A DNA stretch of 64,000 nt, from contig NC_081373.1 of the NCBI RefSeq assembly GCF_030684315.1, positions 24,529,989 to 24,593,988 of the forward strand, written 5' to 3'. Below, in pieces: positions 8,671 to 59,400 of the stretch. A program made the position numbers and the translations under genes. Under the pieces are notes generated by a model. It was not told where the DNA came from and made no database searches. It worked only from the letters and a program-made list of their open reading frames with translations. The first letter of the stretch is position 1. Each line of letters starts with the position of its first letter. The DNA comes from Stegostoma tigrinum. Taxonomy: Eukaryota.

Positions 8671-9705
8671 CTTCCAGATTCAGCTCCAATTTTGAGAGTT
8701 TGATATCGTCTATTTTGGTCAAGTATCAACTTTCTCTCAAGCCAACAACTTCCTAACAACATCTTACTTTAGCACTGACCTGCCATGTCAGTTTGCAGCT
8801 TTACTTGTTAGCGCCCAACCTTTTCCAATGTCAACCGTCCTATTGTTTTTGATCTTCTCAGTTTTTGTCAATATTGTTAGTGGCAACATCTACTCAGACA
8901 TTATCCTTTTTCTATGCAGAACTATCGACATCTTCCTTCTCAACAGCTACAGTATTTCCTCCTACAACAGCCTAAACTGTGACTTCCTGGCTTTTGCCCA
9001 AGGTGCCTGCGTTCATTGTCCTCTCCCAGCTTCATGTTCTGTTCACCTACATCAACTTGCTGCCTTCAGGTAGTTTTTATTATTTTGCCTCTTTCAGGGC
9101 CATTATCCGTTGGGACAGAGTCAGCCACACAACAACCTGAAACTTCCTGCACAAGTTAGTCTCTTTAATCTACTCTACATGCTCAGACATGCAATTAACA
9201 TTAGAGTACCCTATACTTAAAGAAATCAAACATTCATTACTAAACATTTTTAAAGTACATTAATGACACCCATCTCTACAGCTCCAGCACTTTTCCTGAT
9301 AACTCTATAGTTATCACCATTCTGGTACAAAGTTAAATAGTAAAATAGTCAACAAGAGTTTACAATAAATAAGCAAGAGGACTAACTAAGGCATACGTTA
9401 TATCTCCTGTTAGGAGGTGCCCACCAACAATTCCATTCTCCTGCCTGAAAACCTGTTCAGGCTAAACCCAACTACAAGTCATTTTTACATTCTGCTCTAC
9501 CTAGGGTTGGTTTCAAACCTCAAATCCTACCCATTACCAAGACTAAATAGTTCTACCTCAATAACTCCAAATCCTTCCTCATCCACACAAAATCAATGAA
9601 GATACTGCTACTATGCTCTGTTCTGAAACAAGCCCTCTTCATACTTTATCTCCTGAAAAAATTGCAAAAGTCAATCGTGTAAACTAAATTCATAGCTATT
9701 AGAGA

Positions 9706-11000
9706 GAAAGCTGTTAGAGATAGGATTTATAATCATCTAGCAAGCAATAATTTGATTGGACACAGTCAACACGGATTTGTCAAGGGCAGATCATGTCTCA
9801 CAAACCCCATTGAGTTTTTTGAGAAGGTGACCAAGCATGTGGATGAGGGTAGGGCAGTTGATGTGGTGTACATGGACTTCAGAAAAGCTTTTGATCAGGT
9901 TCCACATGGTAGGCTATTGGAGAAAATACGGAGACATTGGACTGAGGGAGATTTAGCAGTTTGGATTAGAAACTGGCTTTCTGTAAGAAAGCAACGAGTG
10001 GTGGTTGATGGAAAATATTCAGACTGGAGTCCGGTTACTAGTGGTGTACCTCAAGGATCTGTTTTGGGACCACTGCTGTTTGTCATTTTTATAAATGACT
10101 TGGATGCAGGCATAGGTGGATGGGTTAATAAGTTTGCAGATGACACTAAAGTCGGTGGAGTGGTGGACAGTGTGGAAGAATGTTGCAGGCTGCAGGGACA
10201 CTTGGATAAACTGCAGAATTGGGCTAGAAGGTGGCAAGTGGAGTTCAATGCCGATAAATGTGAGGTGATTCACTTTGGGAAGAATAATAGGAAGTCAGAA
10301 TACCGGGTCAATGGAAAGATTCTTGGTAGTGTGGATGTGCAGAGGGATCTTGGTGTCCATGTACATAGATCCCTGAAAGTTGCCACCCAGGTTGATAGTG
10401 CTGTTAAGGCGGCTTACGGTGTGTTAGGTTTTATTGGTAGAGGGATTGAGTTCTGGAGCCGTGATGTCATGCGGCAACTGTACAAAACGCTAGTGCAGCC
10501 TCGTTTGGAATATTGCGTGCAGTTCTGGTCTCCCCATTATAGGAAGGATGTTGAAGCATTGGAAAAGGTGCAGTGGAGATTTACCAGGATGTTGCCTGGT
10601 CTGGAGCGAAGGCCTAATGAAGAAAGGCTGAGGGGCTTGGGTCTGTTCTCATTGGAGAGAAGGAGGCTAAGAGGGGATTTAATAGAGACAATCAAGATGA
10701 TCAGAGGATTAGATAGGGTGGACAGTGAGAGTCTTTTTCCGAGGATGATGACGTCAGCTTGTACAAGGGGGCATAGCTACAAATTGAGGGGTGATAGATT
10801 TAAGACAGATGTCAGAGTCAGGTTCTTTACTCAGAGAGTGGTAAGGGCATGGAATGCCCTGCCTGTCAATGTAGTGAACTTAGCCACATTAGGGGTATTT
10901 AAACAGTCCTTGGATAAGCATATGAATGATGATGGGATAATGTAGGGGGGCAACATCGAGGGCCTGTTCTGCGCTGTATTGTTCTATGTTCTATGTTCTA
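9706..11000 (+). mobile_element. 5'-truncated CR1 (HER1-like) LINE with uninterrupted RT/C-terminal reading frame
   Basis: Open ORF 9752-10945 with RT motifs. 3' tail is (GTTCTAT)n. Confidence 0.95.
9752..10945 (+). CDS. CR1 ORF2 fragment: reverse transcriptase + C-terminal domain (397 aa; truncated, not a host gene)
   Basis: Motifs QHGF, YMDFRKAFD, GVPQGSVLGP, KFADDTK, YCVQFWSP, FFTQRVVRAWNALP. Confidence 0.85.
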   Translation: MIGHSQHGFVKGRSCLTNPIEFFEKVTKHVDEGRAVDVVYMDFRKAFDQVPHGRLLEKIRRHWTEGDLAVWIRNWLSVRKQRVVVDGKYSDWSPVTSGVPQGSVLGPLLFVIFINDLDAGIGGWVNKFADDTKVGGVVDSVEECCRLQGHLDKLQNWARRWQVEFNADKCEVIHFGKNNRKSEYRVNGKILGSVDVQRDLGVHVHRSLKVATQVDSAVKAAYGVLGFIGRGIEFWSRDVMRQLYKTLVQPRLEYCVQFWSPHYRKDVEALEKVQWRFTRMLPGLERRPNEERLRGLGLFSLERRRLRGDLIETIKMIRGLDRVDSESLFPRMMTSACTRGHSYKLRGDRFKTDVRVRFFTQRVVRAWNALPVNVVNLATLGVFKQSLDKHMNDDGIM

Positions 11001-19827: not shown

Positions 19828-20766
19828 CATAGAGATATACAGCACAGAAACAGGCCCTCTGGTCCAACTCATCCATGCCAACCAGATATCCTACATAAAT
19901 CTAGTCCTATTTGCCATCATTTGGCCCCTATTCCTCTAAACCCTTCTTATTCATACACTCATTCAGATACCTTTTAAATGTTGTAATTGTGCCAACCTCC
20001 ACTACTTCCTCAAGCAGCTCATCCCATAATTTTCTTCTGAAGAAGGGTCTAGGCTCGAAAACATCAGCTTTCCTGCTCCTCTGATGCTACTTGGCCTGCT
20101 GTGTTTTTTCAGCTCTACACCTTGTTATCTCAGATTCTCCAGCATCTGCAGGTCCTACTATCTCATTCCATATACCACTCTGGCTGAAAATGTTGCCCCT
20201 TAGGGCCCCTTTAAATCTTTCCCCTCTCATCTTAAACCTATGCCCTCTACTTCTGGACTCCCTCAACCTGGGGGAAAAAACTATTTACCTTATTTATGCC
20301 CCTCATGATTTTATAAATGTCTATAAGATTACCCCTTAGCCTCCGATATTCTAGGGAAAATAACCCCAGTCTCCCTATATCAAAAATCTTCCAACCCTGG
20401 CAATATCCTTGTAAATCTTTTCTGAACTCTATCAAGTTTCCCAGCATCTTTCCTATAGCAGGGTGACCAGAACTGCACACAGTGTTCTAATAATGGCTTA
20501 ACCAATGTTCTGTACAGCCACAACATGGGCTCCTAACTCCCGTACACAAAGCACTGACCAATAAAGGCAAGCGTAGCAAACACCTTCTTCGCTATCTTAT
20601 CTATCTGTAATTCCATTTTCAAGGGACTATGAACCTGCACTCCAAGTTCTCTTTGTTCAACAACATTCCCCAGGACATTGCCATTAAGTGTATAGGCCCT
20701 GCCCTGATTTGCCTTTCCAAAATGTAGCACCTCACATTTATCTAAACTAACCTCCATCTGACACTC
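19828..20766 (-). mobile_element. CR1 LINE 3' part, interrupted by two PLE insertions
   Basis: Minus-strand DKCEVLHFGKANQGR, LGVQVHSPLK and LGLFSLEYRRLRGNLI. Continues briefly after 22082. Confidence 0.85.
20030..20162 (+). mobile_element. Mini-PLE with tail nested in CR1
   Basis: TSD CTCAT(C/T)CCATA at 20018-20028 and 20162-20172. Confidence 0.82.
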
Positions 20767-20831
20767 AGATAATAAAATGTGAGGCTGGATGAACACAGCA
20801 GGCCAAGCAGCATCTCAGGAGCACAAAAGCT

Positions 20832-20859
20832 GACGTTTCGGGCCTAGACCCTTCATCAG
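20832..20859 (-). ncRNA. Minimal type I hammerhead ribozyme motif (PLE-associated)
   Basis: Reverse complement reads CTGATGA-A-GGGT-CTAG-GCCC-GAAACGTC. Confidence 0.7.
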
Positions 20860-21943
20860 AGAGGGGGATGGGGGGAGGGAACTGGAATAAATAGGGAGAG
20901 AGGGGGAGGCGGACCGAAGATGGAGAGCAAAGAAGATAGGTGGAGAGGGTGTAGGTGGGGAGGTAGGGAGGGGATAGGTCAGTCCAGGGAAGACGGACAG
21001 GTCAAGGAGGTGGGATGAGGTTAGTAGGTAGCTGGGGGTGCGGCTGGGGGTGGGAGGAAGGGATGGGTGAGAGGAAGAACCGGTTAGGGAGGCAGAGACA
21101 GGTTGGACTGGTTTTGGGATGCAGTGGGTGGGGGGGAAGAGCTGGGCTGGTTGTGTGGTGCAGTGGGGGGAGGGGATGAACTGGGCTGGTTTAGGGATGC
21201 AGTGGGGGAAGGGGAGATTTTGAAACTGGTGAAGTCCACATTGATACCATTGGGCTGCAGGGTTCCCAGGCGGAATATGAGTTGCTGTTCCTGCAACCTT
21301 CGGGTGGCATCATTGTGGCAGTGCAGGAGGCCCATGATGGACATGTCATCAAGAGAATGGGAGGGGGAGTGGAAATGGTTTGCGACTGGGAGGTGCAGTT
21401 GTTTGTTGCGAACTGAGCGGAGGTGTTCTGCAAAGCGGTCCCCAATTCTCTTGATGACATGTCCATCATGGGCCTCCTGCACTGCCACAATGATGCCACC
21501 CGAAGGTTGCAGGAACAGCAACTCATATTCCGCCTGGGAACCCTGCAGCCATATGGTATCAATGTGGACTTCACCAGTTTCAAAATCTCCCCTTCCCCCA
21601 CTGCATCCCTAAACCAGCCCAGTTCATCCCCTCCCCCCACTGCACCACACAACCAGCCCAGCTCTTCCCCCCCACCCACTGCATCCCAAAACCAGTCCAA
21701 CCTGTCTCTGCCTCCCTAACCGGTTCTTCCTCTCACCCATCCCTTCCTCCCACCCCCAGCCGCACCCCCAGCTACCTACTAACCTCATCCCACCTCCTTG
21801 ACCTGTCCGTCTTCCCTGGACTGACCTATCCCCTCCCTACCTCCCCACCTACACCCTCTCCACCTATCTTCTTTGCTCTCCATCTTCGGTCCGCCTCCCC
21901 CTCTCTCCCTATTTATTCCAGTTCCCTCCCCCCATCCCCCTCT

Positions 21944-21971
21944 CTGATGAAGGGTCTAGGCCCGAAACGTC
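21944..21971 (+). ncRNA. Minimal type I hammerhead ribozyme motif (PLE-associated)
   Basis: CTGATGA core, stem II GGGT/GCCC, GAAA, GTC cleavage triplet. Stem III is reduced to the palindrome ACGT, and stem I is only about 2 bp. Confidence 0.7.
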
Positions 21972-22213
21972 AGCTTTTGTGCTCCTGAGATGCTGCTTGG
22001 CCTGCTGTGTTCATCCAGCCTCACATTTTATTATCTTGGAATCTCCAGCATCTGCAGTTCCCATTATCTCCATCTGACACTCCATGGCTCTTATTTGATG
22101 AAGTAAAAGTAAAAGATCTGGGCGTACAGGTCCAGAGATCCCTGAATGTGGCAACTCAGTTGGACAGGAAGGCATACAGCACCCTTGCCTTCGTTGGTCA
22201 TAAAAGTTGGCAG

Positions 22214-22440
22214 GATAATAAAATGTGAGGCTGGATGAACACAGCAGGCCAAGCAGCATCTCAGGAGCACAAAAGCTGACGTTTCGGGCCTAGACCCTTC
22301 ATCAGACTCTCTGATGAAGGGTCTAGGCCCGAAACGTCAGCTTTTGTGCTCCTGAGATGCTGCTTAGCCTGCTGTGTTCATCCAGCCTCACATTTTATTA
22401 TCTTGGAATTCTCCAGCATCTGCAGTTCCCATTATCTCTG
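22214..22440. mobile_element. 227-bp MITE-like two-armed mini-PLE with back-to-back hammerhead motifs
   Basis: Palindromic about 22308. Hammerheads at 22278-22305 (-) and 22311-22338 (+). Tail on the right. Perfect 14-bp TSD ATAAAAGTTGGCAG at 22200-22213 and 22441-22454. Confidence 0.95.
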
Positions 22441-27479: not shown

Positions 27480-29148
27480 GTACCCAGGAATGTGGGCTTG
27501 AGTTTAGAGTAGTGTAACAGTTGGATTACACCAAAGGTAGGTGAGGACCTGGAAACAATCATTATTACGGTAGTATTGGGCAAGTTAACGGAGCTAAGGA
27601 TTGATAAGTCTCCTGGGCCTGATGGAATGCATCCCAGGGTAGTAAAAGAGAATGTGGGAGAAATCGCAGGTGCACTGGTGGCAATTTTCCAAAATTCACT
27701 GGATTCTGGGACAGTCTCAGGAGATTGGAAAACAGCAAATGTGACACCACTGTTTAAAAAGGGAGGTAGACAAAAGATGGGGAATTATAGACCGGTTAGC
27801 TTAACCTCTGTAGTGGGGAAGTTACTTGAATCCATTATCAAGGAAGAAATAGGAAGGCATCTCAATAGAAATTGTACCGTTGGGCAGATACAGCATGGGT
27901 TCATGAAGGGCAGGTCATTCTTGACAAATCTTTTGGAATTCTATGAAGACATTACGAGCAAGGTGGACAATGGGGACCCAGTGGATGTGGTGTACCTATA
28001 TTTCCAAAAGGCCTTCAACAAGGTGCTGCATAAGAGGCTGCTGCATAAGATAAGGATGCATGGCTTTAGGGGTAAAGTATTAGCATGGTTAGAGGATTGG
28101 TTGACTAACAGGAAGCAAAGAGTGGGGATAAATGAGAGCTATTCTGGCTGGCAATCAGTGACTAGTGGTGTGCCTCAGTGTTGGGACCGCAATTATTTCA
28201 AATTTATAAAGATGATTTGGAGTTGGGAACCACGTGTAGGGTGTGAAAGTTTGAAGATGACACTAAGTTGAGTGGCAGAGCGAAGTGTGCAGAGGACTGT
28301 AAAACTTTGCAGAGGAACATAGATACATTGAGTGAGTGGGCAAAGGTCTGTCAGATGGAATACAATGTAAATAAATGTGAAGAGTAATAGTAAAAGGGAT
28401 AATTACTTGAATGGTAAAAAGTTACAAAATGCTGCTATGCAGAGGGACCTGGGTGTCCTTGTGCAGGAAAAGTAATTAGGAAAGCAAATGAAATTTTGTC
28501 CTTCATTGCTAAAGCGATTGAGTTTAAAAGCAGAGAGGTCATGTTGCAGCTGTACAAGGTGCTGGTGAGGCCACACCTGGAGCACCATGTGCAGTTTTGG
28601 TCTCCTTACTTGAGAAAGGATGTACTGGCACTGCATGGGGTCCAGAGGAAGTTCACTAGGTTGATTCTGGAGTTGAGCGGGTTGGTTTATGAGGAGAGAC
28701 TGAGTAGATTGGGATTATATTCATTGGAATTCAGAAGATTGAGGGGGGATCTTATAGAAACATATAAAATTATGAAAGAAATAGATAAGATAGAAGTAGA
28801 CAGGATGTTTCCATTGGCAGGTGAAGCTAGAACAAGAGGGCTGAGCCTCAAGATTAGAGGGAGCAGATCTAGGACTGAATTGAGAAGGAACTTCTTCACT
28901 CAGAGGGTTGTTAATCTATGGAATTCCTTGCCCAGTGAAGTAGTTGACACTACTTCAGTAAACATTTTTAAAGCTAGGGTAGAGGTTTTTTTGAACAATA
29001 AAGGAACAAAGGGATACAGTGAGAATGCAGATAAGTGGATCTGAGTCCACAAAAAGATCAGTCATGATCTTAATGAATGGCAGGGCAGACTCAAAGAGTC
29101 GGACGGCCTACTCCTGCTCCTAGTTCTTATGTTCTTAAGTTCTTATGT
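27480..29148 (+). mobile_element. 5'-truncated CR1 LINE, RT region with frameshifts
   Basis: ORFs 27576-28271 (KSPGPDGMHPRV, NYRPVSLTS, QHGF) and 28496-29044. 3' tail (TTCTTAT/AG)n. Confidence 0.93.
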
Positions 29149-33299: not shown

Positions 33300-34283
33300 A
33301 ATTTAAATACTTGATGAGCAGTTTCTACATTGTACAGGTAGTGCAAAGTAAAGATTGTAGAGCCAATCCAGAGAAGGTTTCTAACCTGGTGTTTGGGAAA
33401 GAAATCTGGAGATATGCCAGTGTGTGTGGAGTCCTTGAGAACTACATATGACTATGACAGGACATCTCTAAAGTGTGCCAAACAAGAATAAGAAGCAGTG
33501 AGAAGGACAGAGAGAGCTACAAAACCAAAGTTGGATCTCATCAAGAATCAGAACTGAGTGTCTTCCTCTTCTGGATTGTCATGGATGCTTGAAATGCCCA
33601 AATCAAATCAGTGTGCCATGGTCAATGATGTTTACAGATAACATTGCAATGTGTAGTGGGAATGATGAAAACATTGCCAAGTATCTCGACAACTGGAGAA
33701 AAGCACTGAAGGTGAGGGATACAAAGATTAGTAGACCAAGCCCAATTTATGGATTATCAGTTTTAGACTAAGTGAAAGAAAATATTATGCATGAGGACTT
33801 GGAGAAAGTAAATAGTTGTAAATACTGGAATCAGTGGTTGAAGGAGATGGAAATATACAAAGGAAATTATGTAACAGATTATTAGATTTTAGTAATAAGA
33901 AAAAATTCAATAGATTATCACGTGATAGAAAAGAGCACTGAAACTAAAAGGAAAAATCTGTAAGACACTTCTAAGATACTTTATTAAATAGTGCAGAAAC
34001 ATGGGCAAAATTAGAGAGACCGGAACAACAACTGGGTACTAATGTGCTGTCGATGCTGAGGCAGATGTCTGGAATGAAGAGAAAAGACAACATCAGAGGC
34101 CAGCATAACAGAAGCTCATTGTGGGAGCACGGAAGAAAGTAGCTGTCAAGAGATTGAAATGGGATGATCATCTATTGCCAAAAGAGAGAGAGACATGTGA
34201 GATGTGGTGAGTTAAGTGGAGGACATTGGACTGACGGAATGGTGGAGAAGAATAAGACCTAAGACAAGATGGAAACCAAGAGG
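33300..34283 (+). mobile_element. Decayed RTE-clade (Rex3/Expander-like) LINE; continues after 36216
   Basis: VPWSMMFTDNIAMCS resembles PWxMMFADDIVxC. LDNWRKALKVRDTKISR resembles LERWRxALERRGMKVSR. GLHQxSxLS-like motif near 33530. Confidence 0.7.
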
Positions 34284-36202
34284 TAATGGGAACTGCAGAT
34301 GCTGGAGATTCCAAGATAATAAAATGTGAGGCTGGATGAACACAGCAGGCCAAGCAGCATCTCAGGAGCACAAAAGCTGACGTTTCGGGCCTAGACCCTT
34401 CATCAGAGAGGGGGATGGGGGGAGGGAACTGGAATAAATAGGGAGAGAGGAGGAGGCGGACCGAAGATGGAGAGTAAAGAAGATAGGTGGAGAGGGTGTA
34501 GGTGGGGAGGTAGGGAGGGGATAGGTCAGTCCAGGGAAGACGGACAGGTCAAGGAGGTGGGATGAGGTTAGTAGGTAGCTGGGGGTGCGGCTTGGGGTGG
34601 GAGGAAGGGATGGGTGAGAGGAAGAACAGGTGAGGGAGGCAGAGACAGGTTGGACTGGTTTTGGGATGCATTGGGTGGGGGGGAAGAGCTGGGCTGGTTG
34701 TGTGGTGCAGTGGGGGGAGGGGATGAACTGGGCTGGTTGAGGGATGCAGTGGGGGAAGGGGAGATTTTGAAACTGGTGAAGTCCACATTGATACCATATG
34801 GCTGCAGGGTTCCCAGGCGGAATATGAGTTGCTGTTCCTGCAACCTTCGGGTGGCATCATTGTGGCAGTGCAGGAGGCCCATGATGGACATGTCATCAAG
34901 AGAATGGGAGGGGGAGTGGAAATGGTTTGCGACTGGGAGGTGCAGTTGTTTGTTGCGAACTGAGCGGAGGTGTTCTGCAAAGCGGTCCCCAAGCATCCGC
35001 TTGGTTTCCCCAATGTAGAGGAAGCCGCACCGGGTACAGTGGATGCAGTATACCACATTGGCAGATGTGCAGGTGAACCTCTGCTTAATGTGGAATGTCA
35101 TCTTGGGGCCTGGGATGGGGGTGAGGGAGGAGGTGTGGGGACAAGTGTAGCATTTCCTGCGGTTGCAGGGGAAGGTGCCGGGTGTGGTGGGGTTGGAGGG
35201 CAGTGTGGAGCGAACAAGGGAGTCACGGAGAGAGTGGTCTCTCCGGAAAGCAGACAGGGGAGGGGATGGAAAAATGTCTTGGGTGGTGGGGTCGGATTGT
35301 AAATGGCGGAAGTGTCGGAGGATAATGCGTTGTATCCGGAGGTTGGTAGGGTGGTGTGTGAGAACGAGGGGGATCCTCTTGGGGCGGTTGTGGCGGGGGC
35401 GGGGTGTGAGGGATGTGTCGCGGGAAATGCGGGAGACGCGGTCAAGGGCGTTCTCAATCACCGGGTACTGCATCCACTGTACCCGGTGCGGCTTCCTCTA
35501 CATTGGGGAAACCAAGCGGAGGCTTGGGGACCGCTTTGCAGAACACCTCCGCTCAGTTCGCAACAAACAACTGCACCTCCCAGTCGCAAACCATTTCCAC
35601 TCCCCCTCCCATTCTCTTGATGACATGTCCATCATGGGCCTCCTGCACTGCCACAATGATGCCACCCGAAGGTTGCAGGAACAGCAACTCATATTCCGCC
35701 TGGGAACCCTGCAGCCATATGGTATCAATGTGGACTTCACCAGTTTCAAAATCTCCCCTTCCCCCACTGCATCCCTAAACCAGCCCAGTTCATCCCCTCC
35801 CCCCACTGCACCACACAACCAGCCCAGCTCTTCCCCCCCACCCACTGCATCCCAAAACCAGTCCAACCTGTCTCTGCCTCCCTAACCGGTTCTTCCTCTC
35901 ACCCATCCCTTCCTCCCACCCCAAGCCGCACCCCCAGCTACCTACTAACCTCATCCCACCTCCTTGACCTGTCCGTCTTCCCTGGACTGACCTATCCCCT
36001 CCCTACCTCCCCACCTACACCCTCTCCACCTATCTTCTTTACTCTCCATCTTCGGTCCGCCTCCCCCTCTCTCCCTATTTATTCCAGTTCCCTCCCCCCA
36101 TCCCCCTCTCTGATGAAGGGTCTAGGCCCGAAACGTCAGCTTTTGTGCTCCTGAGATGCTGCTTGGCCTGCTGTGTTCATCCAGCCTCACATTTTATTAT
36201 CC
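34284..36202. mobile_element. Largest two-armed PLE insertion (left arm tailed ~1.18 kb, right arm untailed ~0.74 kb)
   Basis: 14-bp TSD TGGAAACCAAGAGG at 34270-34283 and 36203-36216. Hammerheads at 34379-34406 (-) and 36110-36137 (+). Junction near 35460. Confidence 0.95.
34568..35462 (-). pseudogene. PLE polyprotein C-terminal fragment: Cys-rich linker + GIY-YIG endonuclease (Neptune-type)
   Basis: CNRRKCYTC Zn-finger linker, NVVYCIHCTRCGFLYIGETKR (GIY-YIG), DRFAEH, QEQ, GINV. Open frame but 5'-truncated. Confidence 0.9.
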
Positions 36203-36276
36203 TGGAAACCAAGAGGGATTGGATGAGGAATGGGTGACTAACAAAGATGAAGAACAGTGATCAACCAACATTGTAA

Positions 36277-41707: not shown

Positions 41708-41862
41708 AGAGATAATGGGAACTGCAGATGCTGGAGAAATTCCAAGATAATAAAATGTGAGGCTGGATGAACACAGCAGGCCAAGCAGCATCTCAAGAGC
41801 ACAAAAGCTCCTGAGATGCTGCTTGGCCTGCTGTGTTCATCCAGCCTCACATTTTATTATCT
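41708..41862. mobile_element. Two-armed micro-PLE, tail on the left
   Basis: 15-bp TSD TGTATTATTTGAATG at 41693-41707 and 41863-41877. Arms join at GCT microhomology. Confidence 0.92.
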
Positions 41863-42849
41863 TGTATTATTTGAATGGTTTTGTGCTTCCACAGTTATTG
41901 CATCTGCAAAACATTAGGAGGGAGAGAAGGTTAGATTCCAGGTACCAGCAATGTGGCAGTGTAATGGACAAGACCAGAATCTCTTCCTTGCAGTTCACAG
42001 AGCAGTGGTATGAGAGGAGATTTCCTTTACCAGGGGAGACCTAGTACTTGTTATAACTGCACTTCTCCCTAATGAAGTGCTCGTAGGGCTGAGTGGTTGC
42101 AACTTATACCCAGGGCAGCAACAGGATGAGATTCAGTTATGGTCATACACCACCCTGATGCTAATTGGCCAGAATTCTGGAAAGACCTTAATTCTAGCAG
42201 GACACTCCGGGATTAAGGGAAACACAGATCAATTGACACTTCTAATATTTGTGACACAGTCTCTGTTTCTGCCGGTGTGAGCCTCGCAATAATAAGCCCT
42301 ATAAATAATTGTCAGGAGATAGACAATCCCAGCAATCGTTGTAAGAGCTGGATGGAGCTGTATGGGTCCGGTTTTTTAAAACCGAAGGAATTAATTAATT
42401 GTTGCTGGAGGTTCTGTGCACATTGTATTTTGCTCTAAAGCTCTGTTTCCTTCTAGTCCCAGTTGACACCAATACACCTTCCACTTAGGGTGCTGCAAGA
42501 GGCCTGACAATCCAGTTATGTTGTACAATTGCTTGTCTCCACATTGTGTATGGCCGTTGGAAAGCATGCATGCACTGCTAGTCGACCCTATTTGAAGCAA
42601 TGAATATTCTTTTATGTATGCTTTTTCCTATGTGCTGAAGTTAAATTCACTGAACTCTGGTATCATCATTAACATATTCTATTATTTCTTCCCAATAGGT
42701 AAAACAGCCAATGTGACTTCCTGGGGTGTAAGAAATATTTTTAAAGTAATTAGTGAACCACTATTTATGAATTGATTGTAAAAATGCACCCTACTTGATA
42801 AGATATGAATTAATTTATTACTTATCATTTTATTGAAGCACTTTATAAT

Positions 42850-56454: not shown

Positions 56455-59400
56455 CATTTGAGATGGTAGTTAGGACAGCAGTATGCTCCTCGTGCTGGAT
56501 GTGAGTACTTAGGGAGACTTCCATTGTCTCTGGTAACTACAGCTGTTGGAAGTGCACCCAGCTGCAGCTCCTGGGAGACTGTGTCAGGGAGCTGGAGTTG
56601 GATGCACTCAGGATCATCCGAAATACTGAGCGCAACAAAGATAAGAGTTTTAGCGAGGTGGTCACACCTAAGGTGCAGGCAGAGAGTAGCTGGGTAAACA
56701 CCAGGAAAGGCAAAGGGAGTAGGCAGAAAATGCAGGAATTCCCTGGTGGCCATTCTCCTTGAAAACAAATTTTCCATTTTGGATACTGTTGGGAGGAATG
56801 ACTTCAGGGTGAAGCATCAATAGCCTGGTCAGTGCCACTGTGACAGGCTCTGGAGCACTGTGGGAAAGGGTAAGGGTAAACAGGACGGTAGTGATAGGAG
56901 ACTAGATAGTTAGGGGGACAGACAGGAGACTCTAGCTGCACAGGAATCCAGGTTGGTGTGTTGCTTCCCAGGTGTTAGGGTCCAGGATGTCATGGAGCAG
57001 TGCAGAATGTTCTCAAGGAGGAGGGTGAGCAGCCAGAAGTGATTGTGCATGCTGGTATGAATGACAAGTCAGAAATAGGGATGAGGTCCTGTGGAGTGAT
57101 CATAGAGAGCTAGGAAAAAAGTTAAAAACCAGGACCTTGACAGTGGTAATTTCGAGATTACTTCCAGTGCCACATGCTAGTGAGGGTAAGAACAGGAGAG
57201 TATACAGCAGATGAATGCGTGGCTAAAGATTTGGTGCAGAGCGCAGGATCCTGGATCATTAGGATCTTTTCTGGGGCAGAGGTGATCTATTCAAGGGGGA
57301 TGAGGTGTACCTGAACTGGAGGGGACCAATATCCTGGCAGGCAGATTTGGTCTTGCTGCAAGGGGGGGTTTAAACTAAATTGGCAGGGAATGGGATCCTC
57401 AACAGCAGAGAAGCATGAGTCTGGAAGGAGACACAATAATCAAATATAGCAAGTTGAAGAAACGGGTCAGGCTGGAACAGGACAGGGAGCGAGGAATGCC
57501 TGTTGGATTAAATTGCATCTATTTCAATGCACAAGGGCTGACCAGTAAGGCCGATGAACTCAGGATGTGGATAGGTATGTGGGGCTGGGATGTTATAGCC
57601 ATTACAGACACATGGCTGAAGGAGGGACAGGACCGGCAGCTTAATGTGGGACACTGGTGAAAGAAAGAGGGGAGGGGGAGGTGAGTTTTTGATTAAGGGG
57701 AGTATCACAGCAGTAATCAGAGATAAAAGAACTGAGAGATCATCCAGTGAACCTGCGTGGGTGGAGCTAAGAAATGAAAAGGGGATGGAGATATTATTGG
57801 GGTTGTATTTTAGGCCCCGAAATGGTCAATGGGAATTAGAGGAACAAATATGCAGAGAGTCTGGAGACTTGCATGAGCAATAGGATTGTCATAGTGGGAC
57901 ATTTTAATTTTCCTAACAGACTGGGACTAGGATCGTGTTAAGGGCTTAGATGGTGTGGAATTTGTTAAATGTGTTCCAGAAAGTTTCCGGAAAGGATCCT
58001 ATTTGGGAAGGGCAAAATACGACTTACTGTTGGGAAATAGGGCAGGACAGGTGAACTGAACTGAGGTGACAGTGGGGGAGCACTTTTGCACCAGTGGCCA
58101 TAGTTCTATTAATTTTAGAATAGTTATCGAGAAGGACAAAACTGGTCCACAGGTTCAAATTCTAAATTGGGGCACGACAAATTTTGGTGATATTAGTCAA
58201 GAGCTTGAAGGGGTTGATTGGAGTAGTTTATTTGTTGGCATAGGGACCTCTGGCAAGTGGGGAGGGCTTCAAAAGTATGATAGCTAGAGTTCAAGGGCAA
58301 GGTTGGCCTGGAGTAGGGAGCACTGGATGACAAGAGATATTGAGGCTTTGACCAGAAAAAAGGAAGAGGTATGGCTCATGTAAGGTCAAGGGAATCCCCA
58401 GAGGTATATAGGGGATACAGGAGTTTACTGAAGAAGGAAATCAGAAGGATGAAAAAGGGGGGCACATGATAGATTTGGCTGAGAAGATTAGGGTGAATCC
58501 AAAGGGATCCTTTAAGTATATTAAAGAAAAAAGAATAACTAGAGGGGGATTAGGACCCGTCAGGGACCAAAGTGGACAATTATGTGTGGAACCGCAGGAG
58601 ATGGGTGAGGTCCTCAATGAAGATTTTTCCTTTGTGCTTACCGTGGAGAAAGACATGAAGGCTTGGAATCTTGCGGAAATTAGTGGTGTTATTTTGGGAA
58701 CAGTCGTTATCACAGCGGAGGTGGTGTTGGTAGTATTAGAATGCATGAAGGTGGATAAATCCCCTGGTCCTGACCAGATATGTCCAAGGACTCTGCAAGA
58801 GGCTAGAGAAGAAATTGCAGGGGCCTCAGCTGATATATTTGCATCATCTTTAGACATAGTGAGGTCTCAGAAGATTGGAAATTAGCGAATGTTGTGCGCT
58901 TATTCAAGGAGGGCTTCCAAGGAAAAACCCTTGAAGTACAGACCAGTAAGCCTAATACCTGTGGTAGTTGAGTTACTTGAGCAGATTCTGAGGGATACGA
59001 TATACATGCGTTTAGAATGACAGGGTTTGAATTGGAGTAGTCAGCATGGCTTCATGCGTGGGAGGTCAGACCTCACAAATTTCTTAGAGCTCCTTGATAA
59101 AGTGACCAGGAAGGTTGACGAGGGCAGGGTGATCGACATAGTTTAAATAGATTTCAGTAAGGCCTTTGATAAGGATCCACATGGAAGGCTGCTCTGGAAA
59201 GTCAGATTGCATGGAATCGGGGAAAGCTGACAAATTGGATACATAATTGGCTTGATGGTAGGAAGCAGAGGGTAATATTGGAAGGATGCTTGTCGGACTG
59301 GAGGCTAATGTTGTGCCTCAGGGGTCGGTGGTGGGCCCATTCCTGTTTGTTATCTATATCAATGATTTGGATGAGAATGTACAAGGCATGATTAGTAAGT

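Follow-up and report, generated by a model that had tools for sequence, protein, structure and literature searches.

The closest described relatives of the motif considered here are the minimal hammerhead ribozymes (min-HHRs) of PLEs; statements below on the literature follow the accessible portions of the sources cited. Cervera and De la Pena (2014) reasoned that helix III and loop 3 are unnecessary, defined the min-HHR, with an extra base, a G10.1-C11.1 pair and a palindromic 15.2-16.2 pair among its features, and described it in PLEs of fish, coelacanth and frog (PMC4209133). According to the available text, monomers were inactive, dimer and trimer constructs cleaved weakly, and evidence for activity in vivo was stated to be absent (PMC4209133); for Xenopus, the text available to us gives no cleavage in 8/9 dimer constructs. 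Small PLE hammerheads that cleave as dimers were also described by Lunse, Weinberg and Breaker, as summarized in part of a review (PMC6765202). For the Poseidon element PAc of Anolis carolinensis, the only element reconstituted, the accessible sections report that the hammerhead cleaves only with protein and is dispensable for insertion: hammerhead mutants inserted in vitro without change, nicking and extension took place on both strands, and the protein was predicted to form a dimer (Frangieh et al. 2024; PMC11167929). Naiad PLEs, in the excerpts available, have inverted arms and a tail on one side and lack a detectable hammerhead (10.1101/2021.04.23.441226, PMC3846280), and non-LTR retrozymes have been reported in one chondrichthyan genome, according to the accessible parts of two further sources (PMC7229834, 10.64898/2026.07.22.740005). 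The motif is thus known, and its role in the Penelope life cycle is the question that the insertion-end footprint described below addresses.

The window, that is, the whole 64-kb stretch of DNA that was analysed, contains a 28-nt motif with the letters given in the first-pass annotation, and its parts, all on the plus strand, are as follows.

21944-21971, plus: minimal type I hammerhead core (sequence, descriptor match and the min-HHR features in the accessible text of PMC4209133)
21942-21943 with 21972-21973, plus: stem I, 2 bp (descriptor, folding)
21944-21950, plus: CUGAUGA of the hammerhead core (sequence)
21951, plus: extra A between positions 9 and 10.1 (sequence)
21952-21963, plus: stem II, 4 bp, with a CUAG loop (sequence)
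21964-21967, plus: GAAA (sequence)
21967-21970, plus: palindrome ACGU (sequence)
21971, plus: C17 (sequence)
between 21971 and 21972, plus: predicted cut (hammerhead numbering, after GUC)
21944-21949 paired with 21968-21973, plus: competing inactive hairpin (predicted fold)

Within the motif, position 0 is the first C of the core, which puts the predicted cut between +27 and +28. The order CUGANGA ... GAAA ... NUH is that of a type I core, and the extra base between positions 9 and 10.1, the G10.1-C11.1 pair, a closed stem II (one U-G among its 4 bp), the missing loop 3 and the palindromic 15.2-16.2 pair are all present, which, together with a PLE host carrying the motif in both pLTRs, bears out the earlier identification of a minimal type I hammerhead of a PLE. 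GUC comes immediately after GAAAC, with ACGU standing for A15.1-C15.2-G16.2-U16.1, and because no loop separates the two, stem III cannot close within one copy and needs a second, just as had been supposed. The designation "ultra-minimal", in the sense of a new form, has to be dropped, since the motif is the min-HHR already described in the accessible text of PMC4209133; the zero-loop and obligate-dimer ideas are published, and what is added here is the insertion-end footprint at the cut.

The claim of more than 15 intact or variant copies in the window agrees with the count: seven copies are exact, 16 have at most three mismatches (0 in 100 shuffles) and 23 at most eight. The strict minimal-hammerhead descriptor is passed by 15 window sequences, two of them from another family. 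That the motif occurs in most PLE termini holds for about two thirds of the ~34 element ends identified in the window. Throughout the 3.2-Gb genome, the exact 28-mer has 92,176 copies and its reversed control none. Stem I has 2 bp (U-A, C-G) in 24/25 exact copies of an 864-kb sample, as the first-pass annotation had stated for the young family; sister families have 3-5 bp, compared with the 2 bp of the main family, while typical examples have 4-5 bp and D. virilis 2 bp.

An Rfam scan of the window with E up to 1 gave 12 matches, none of them to a hammerhead family, and single-strand folding of five windows gave neither a stability above that of shuffles (z -0.08 to 0.57) nor a longer stem I. 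For the monomer, the predicted fold pairs CUGAUG with CGUCAG in a hairpin that ends at +29. In a secondary-structure model only, two folded monomers come to -22.8 kcal/mol and the double hammerhead to -5.5, a predicted loss of stability of 17 kcal/mol for the latter. For the copy at 21944, the partner lies on the opposite strand, and the next sense copy starts 367 nt downstream, at 22311.

This copy belongs to a head-to-head, 5'-truncated stub, which is listed here with the other insertions of the window.

20752-20766, plus: left copy of the 15-bp target-site duplication
20767-21445, minus: left (inverted) arm, with a short 3' end and no tail (arm comparison)
20832-20859, minus: mirror hammerhead in the left arm (motif search)
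21442-22070, plus: right arm of the two-armed, 5'-truncated PLE insertion (arm comparison)
22037-22070, plus: 34-nt tail closing the right arm (arm comparison)
22068-22082, plus: right copy of the target-site duplication, overlapping the element end by 3 nt
22211-22438, both arms: neighbouring mini two-armed insertion with a 14-bp duplication
22278-22305 minus and 22311-22338 plus: hammerhead copies of this neighbouring insertion
34280-36207, no strand assigned: longest insertion of the family in the window
41709-41864, no strand assigned: mini two-armed insertion whose minus arm begins at 41809
9683-10945, 27513-29044 and 58412-58885: LINE reverse transcriptase fragments (Pfam RVT_1 E 2e-28 for the first), which we take to be CR1/L2-like

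The left and right arms of the stub at 20767-22070 differ by three mismatches over 595 nt, and the left one encodes the C-terminal end of a GIY-YIG domain. The minus arm of the longest insertion encodes the RT thumb, the Zn-finger linker and GIY-YIG at 34568-35497. Within 22211-22438, the arms begin 1 and 4 nt ahead of the hammerhead core, and the arm that begins at 41809 does so exactly at the predicted cut and matches the other arm over 3 inverted nt. At 21910-21921, 22 nt before the core, is a pyrimidine tract with CAG as its last letters, and older subfamilies have a similar CAG; by analogy, the CAG of the tract is a possible splice acceptor, and PLE introns are described as ending near the hammerhead in D. 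virilis (PMC4209133, accessible text).

A genome search with the upstream coding part of the family yielded 20 long copies. One locus, L056, is a full partial tandem, in which a pLTR with a hammerhead is followed by a 1,088-codon frame and a second hammerhead; the two hammerheads are 3,621 nt apart and flank the ORF, and the motif is present in both pLTRs. The single ORF encodes RT followed by a C-terminal GIY-YIG, with the motifs DKG, YIDD and YIGET, and its Pfam matches (RVT_1 E 3.4e-05, GIY-YIG E 0.0015) are both weak and under the curated cut-off; a PDB sequence search with the full ORF gave no matches. The linker joining RT to EN holds a CX4CxxC Zn-finger (residue 911 of P0001), which falls within the CX2-5CxxC pattern of Neptune/Nematis. 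The host is provisionally assigned to the Neptune-type PLEs, a name based on this linker and on which clades vertebrates are reported to have, and the architecture is that of EN+ PLEs, with partial tandem pLTRs, an inverted 5'-truncated arm, a one-ended tail and a target duplication. The first in-frame ATG lies ~140 nt after the predicted cut. In 11/11 readings (L056:6437-6440 minus and ten others), the tail closes with a TGA that lies in the frame of the ORF. A constant in-frame upstream ORF was rejected, being present in 5/11 readings, with the upstream reading shifted by a 1-nt indel. Two further observations concern where the sequence occurs: related sequence is found in three contig sets (guessed to be RNA) of another organism, contigs of a kind that cannot show RNA ends, and at C10:20.0-20.2 Mb a segment of ~95 kb is tandemly duplicated with the same element insertions in both copies.

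The minimal-hammerhead descriptor matched 65 times in the 864 kb and not at all in the reversed sequence. Across families, the core and the palindrome stay constant against varying flanks, a varying stem II and a stem I of 2 to 5 bp, and the catalytic residues and the palindromic 15.2-16.2 pair persist in Neptune- and Poseidon-type families with unrelated stems; since the descriptor itself demands the core, these matches show recurrence with unrelated stems and not an unbiased rate. One copy has AGCU in place of ACGU. A Poseidon-type PLE family (L230, L246, L247, L087) carries a zero-loop ACGU hammerhead with a longer stem II and a 3-bp stem I; a MAFFT cross-family alignment was set aside because its Poseidon-type rows were misplaced. 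Within the young family, ACGU is found in 136/150 descriptor matches and the other 14 show a CpG-type transition, the decay being CpG-driven and fastest at CpG sites, those of ACGU included. No excess conservation of the core was seen there: it decays neutrally, like the flank, as is expected for dead copies, and hence the young family gives no signal of selection.

The logic of the footprint is that a cut RNA, if copied, should leave arms starting at +28. Genome-wide arm starts were counted with three mismatched letters required before the shared anchor, and in the main family 2,402 arms start at +28, compared with 359 at +27, 315 at +29 and 383 at +30. An AGCU palindrome starts at the predicted cut, and a hand count of the first 100 of the 2,402 listed starts gave ~62 symmetric joins on this palindrome, 12 snap-backs on a 3-bp hairpin and ~26 starts free of either match. 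About three quarters of the main-family peak thus falls on a palindrome or hairpin match, and the remaining quarter, ~625 starts, amounts to 1.6-2 fold the neighbour counts at +27, +29 and +30, which were taken whole, with their own deletion and microhomology classes included. A second family, from which both the AGCU palindrome and the competing hairpin are absent, has 199 starts at the cut, a count inflated by an added A, and 39 at the next base, or ~159 versus 31 when one microhomology class is subtracted by hand; upstream coding sequence on its own strand was found in 0/11 copies, and no PLE ORF was tied to this family. The Poseidon-type family gave 47 arm starts at the cut versus 23 one base further on, which become 43 and 12 after removal of obvious small deletions by hand; for both these families, the next base is the only neighbour control.

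A sample of 266 arms gave the same picture on a smaller scale. It covers 1.175 Mb, made up of 693 kb taken blind, the 64-kb window and 55 stretches picked out of the listed mini two-armed insertions, which bias it toward short, paired arms, and it leaves out 107 kb of a duplication and 35 old-subfamily arms. Twelve arms start at +28 and none at +25, +26, +27 or +29; six of the twelve have no palindrome or hairpin match, and a rough Poisson estimate is 7e-8 for the twelve and 0.004 for the six. Symmetric joins in this sample also occur on other palindromes (GGCC 2, CUAG 1, versus AGCU 3). In 30 insertions with a tandem junction, no restart falls between +1 and +130 except at the predicted cut. 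The best interpretation of a peak one base wide, at a site predicted beforehand and in three contexts, is a physical end of the RNA. The proposal that the motif processes the transcript is supported, indirectly, by the overrepresentation of insertion ends where the cut is predicted, and for a small part of the RNA: with 12/266 arms at the cut against 120/266 at the front edge, cleavage looks like a minor fate. A search of mainly open-access literature listed no paper on genomic insertion ends at a PLE hammerhead cut.

The 120 front-edge arms start at -13 to +9 and keep the motif intact, as most short arms do; their count at -1 is too high because a subfamily differs from the reference. We infer that this cluster marks the transcript 5' end, and, if so, the 5' copy barely has its strand of stem I, which fits the decay of that stem to 2 bp. 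Arm starts cluster at -7 to +9 of the core, in a pyrimidine tract (22307-22311 of the window and many other loci). A G precedes 12/15 arms starting at -4 (4/6 among unpaired arms) and is a possible trace of the cap.

Two sense copies of the motif on one RNA are provided by the full partial tandem at L056 and by short arrays, which occur among the 1,749 copies of the tail-ORF junction in the genome. The arrays (L162, L171-L175, L181, L182) consist of circularly permuted units that span the hammerhead, the tail and the ORF start; a unit is ~166-710 nt long and has its own type I hammerhead (e.g., L162, L171-L175). The junction is identical in every repeat of an array and has no overlap in L162, L172 and L173, and the arrays end at the two RT start sites of the element with the whole hammerhead inside. 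These features look like rolling reverse transcription of RNA circles. The 30 insertions have 28 junction types, and junctions that are nearly all distinct suggest arrays formed anew many times, not a few families that were amplified. The 5' sides of the junctions are often at T^C, a context that we would liken to TCT/TOP-type start motifs. An origin by back-splicing or from lariats is unsupported, the 5' sides being scattered and without AG or GT.

As for the two-armed insertions, the tail is on exactly one arm in 81/85 sampled pairs, the target duplication has its mode at 14-15 bp in these 85 pairs, and the further-reaching arm is tail-less in 34 pairs and tailed in 19. A tail on one arm, either arm reaching further 5' and duplications of 14-15 bp together point to two primings, one per strand; a simple fold-back from one fixed arm was rejected on the 34 and 19 pairs. 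Arms that differ at several subfamily-diagnostic sites were seen in ~5/85 pairs, and such mixed arms (L261, L271, L272, L247, C5 block 54237) reflect either two templates or partial conversion.

Two other accounts have to be weighed against the reading of the peak as cleavage and of the arms as products of two primings. One is that nothing is cut in the main family: the peak would then arise from stalling of the RT at the foot of the CUGAUG/CGUCAG hairpin together with joining on AGCU, and the motif would be kept as a promoter, initiator-flanking or protein-binding element. Much of the main-family evidence is compatible with this, given that some three quarters of the peak carry a palindrome or hairpin match, that the inactive hairpin is the predicted fold and ends at or next to the cut in the main and Poseidon-type families, so that a stall could mimic a cut, and that stem I has 2 bp, the 120/266 arms stop at the front edge of an intact motif and Rfam matches no hammerhead in the window. 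Stalling and joining do not readily account, however, for a peak one base wide, for its recurrence in the family that has neither palindrome nor hairpin (199 vs 39, or ~159 vs 31 trimmed by hand) or for the persistence of the catalytic residues and the palindromic pair across Neptune- and Poseidon-type families with unrelated stems, and we regard this account as unlikely, although it deserves to be kept in view.

The other account, that of the first-pass annotation, lets ACGU pairing of two RNAs both activate cleavage and deliver two templates to one target, giving the two-armed insertions. Such insertions are very common, with 48,488 mini examples having exact anchors within 140 nt in the genome, and some do have two templates: L162 combines an ORF-derived arm and a circle-type array arm inside one 15-bp duplication, and the ~5/85 mixed pairs may be of the same kind. 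The extension of either arm further 5' speaks against simple fold-back, and the agreement of the arms in subfamily (50/58 pairs; shuffled mean 18.7) is what pairing of sister RNAs would give. So far as co-delivery means that two templates can meet in one insertion, it holds; ACGU as the glue does not fare as well. Arms that start at the cut are without ACGU if cut, yet 11/12 of them are paired (in a sample that favours paired arms), in some insertions with both arms starting so. Both arms that cross a tandem junction share it in 11/11 insertions, whereas only 2/435 pairs of insertions do (hand tallies, overlapping loci removed for the latter), which indicates one RNA or sisters rather than random partners and would be explained equally by a single RNA copied twice and by sisters. 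A helix of 4 bp with two 2-bp stems is predicted to be unstable. Naiads, in the available descriptions, show the same arms and tail without a detectable hammerhead, so the architecture does not need the ribozyme (10.1101/2021.04.23.441226, PMC3846280), and the anole hammerhead mutants described in the accessible text insert normally in vitro, with a predicted protein dimer (PMC11167929); the catalytic mutants kept stem III and are therefore no direct test of pairing. An ACGU dimer as the origin of the two-armed insertions thus appears distinctly improbable, although conceivable between sister RNAs, and they likely result from priming by the element protein on both nicked target strands.

The reading that we prefer, and hold to be probable, is that the motif is the loop-less min-HHR of a Neptune-type PLE pLTR, which, in vivo, likely cleaves after GUC in a small fraction of the RNA, with a partner copy, and probably help from protein, predicted to be needed for stem III, and that the two arms come from protein priming. 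A lone copy of the motif would fold into the inactive hairpin, and the transcript would begin at the front-edge cluster. The double hammerhead may occasionally form between two copies, carried either by a single tandem transcript or by sister RNAs; the RT would run off the end of the cut RNA and leave the footprint at +28, and circles bearing the hammerhead could be copied round into short arrays. The element protein would prime on both nicked target strands and thereby produce two arms. A bolder version, put forward tentatively and with less than even confidence, is that the genome holds a base-exact fossil record of in vivo cleavage by loop-less hammerheads in two clades, solely by way of a partner copy. 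The dimer would then be a switch, off on single-copy transcripts that start at the front edge and on for tandem transcripts, whose monomers would circularise and be copied round by both enzyme subunits into retrozyme-like arrays born afresh with each insertion.

About 10^5 young copies, as records of template starts, make the genome itself a source on cleavage, on where transcripts start and on how templates are used. Two questions thereby become testable: whether minimal hammerheads are active in animals, and by what route pseudo-LTRs give rise to retrozymes. The simplest connection of RNA dimers with two-armed insertions is set aside.

Compared with the min-HHRs in the accessible text of PMC4209133, the motif is alike in the missing helix III and loop 3, the extra base, the G10.1-C11.1 pair and the palindromic 15.2-16.2 pair, as well as in its presence in both pLTRs, its thousands of dispersed single copies and its opposite-strand pairs, and action as a dimer was proposed there as for the motif here. 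At 4 bp, stem II is shorter than the 7-8 bp given for Schistosoma, and stem I, at 2 bp, is shorter than the 4-5 bp given there, whereas a 2-bp helix I like that of the main family is reported for D. virilis, and the copy number is ten times the highest vertebrate count in the available text; that text is without in vivo evidence, for which the present genome offers an indirect footprint (PMC4209133). The hammerheads of Lunse and colleagues, as far as the review excerpt describes them, share the diminished stem III and the association with PLEs and cleave as dimers (PMC6765202). The EN+ PLEs in the available descriptions have the same 5'-truncated head-to-head arms, target duplication and 30-40-nt tail on one end (10.1101/2021.04.23.441226, PMC3846280). 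The retrozymes, in the parts of the sources accessible, resemble the arrays in their short tandems, a hammerhead per unit and an origin from PLE pLTRs (PMC7229834, 10.64898/2026.07.22.740005); nearly every array here has its own junction and ends at RT starts, unlike what a few amplified families would give. Finally, PAc, by the accessible text of PMC11167929, shares two internal RT start sites giving the tail, a hammerhead in the pLTR, nicking and extension of both target strands and the dominance of uncut RNA as template, which agrees with the minor cleavage seen here. It belongs to a different clade, and its ORF starts inside stem II, compared with a first ATG ~140 nt after the cut in the present element; and while, by the available text, no PAc RNA reads ending at the cut were found, the genomic ends of the present element do peak there (PMC11167929).
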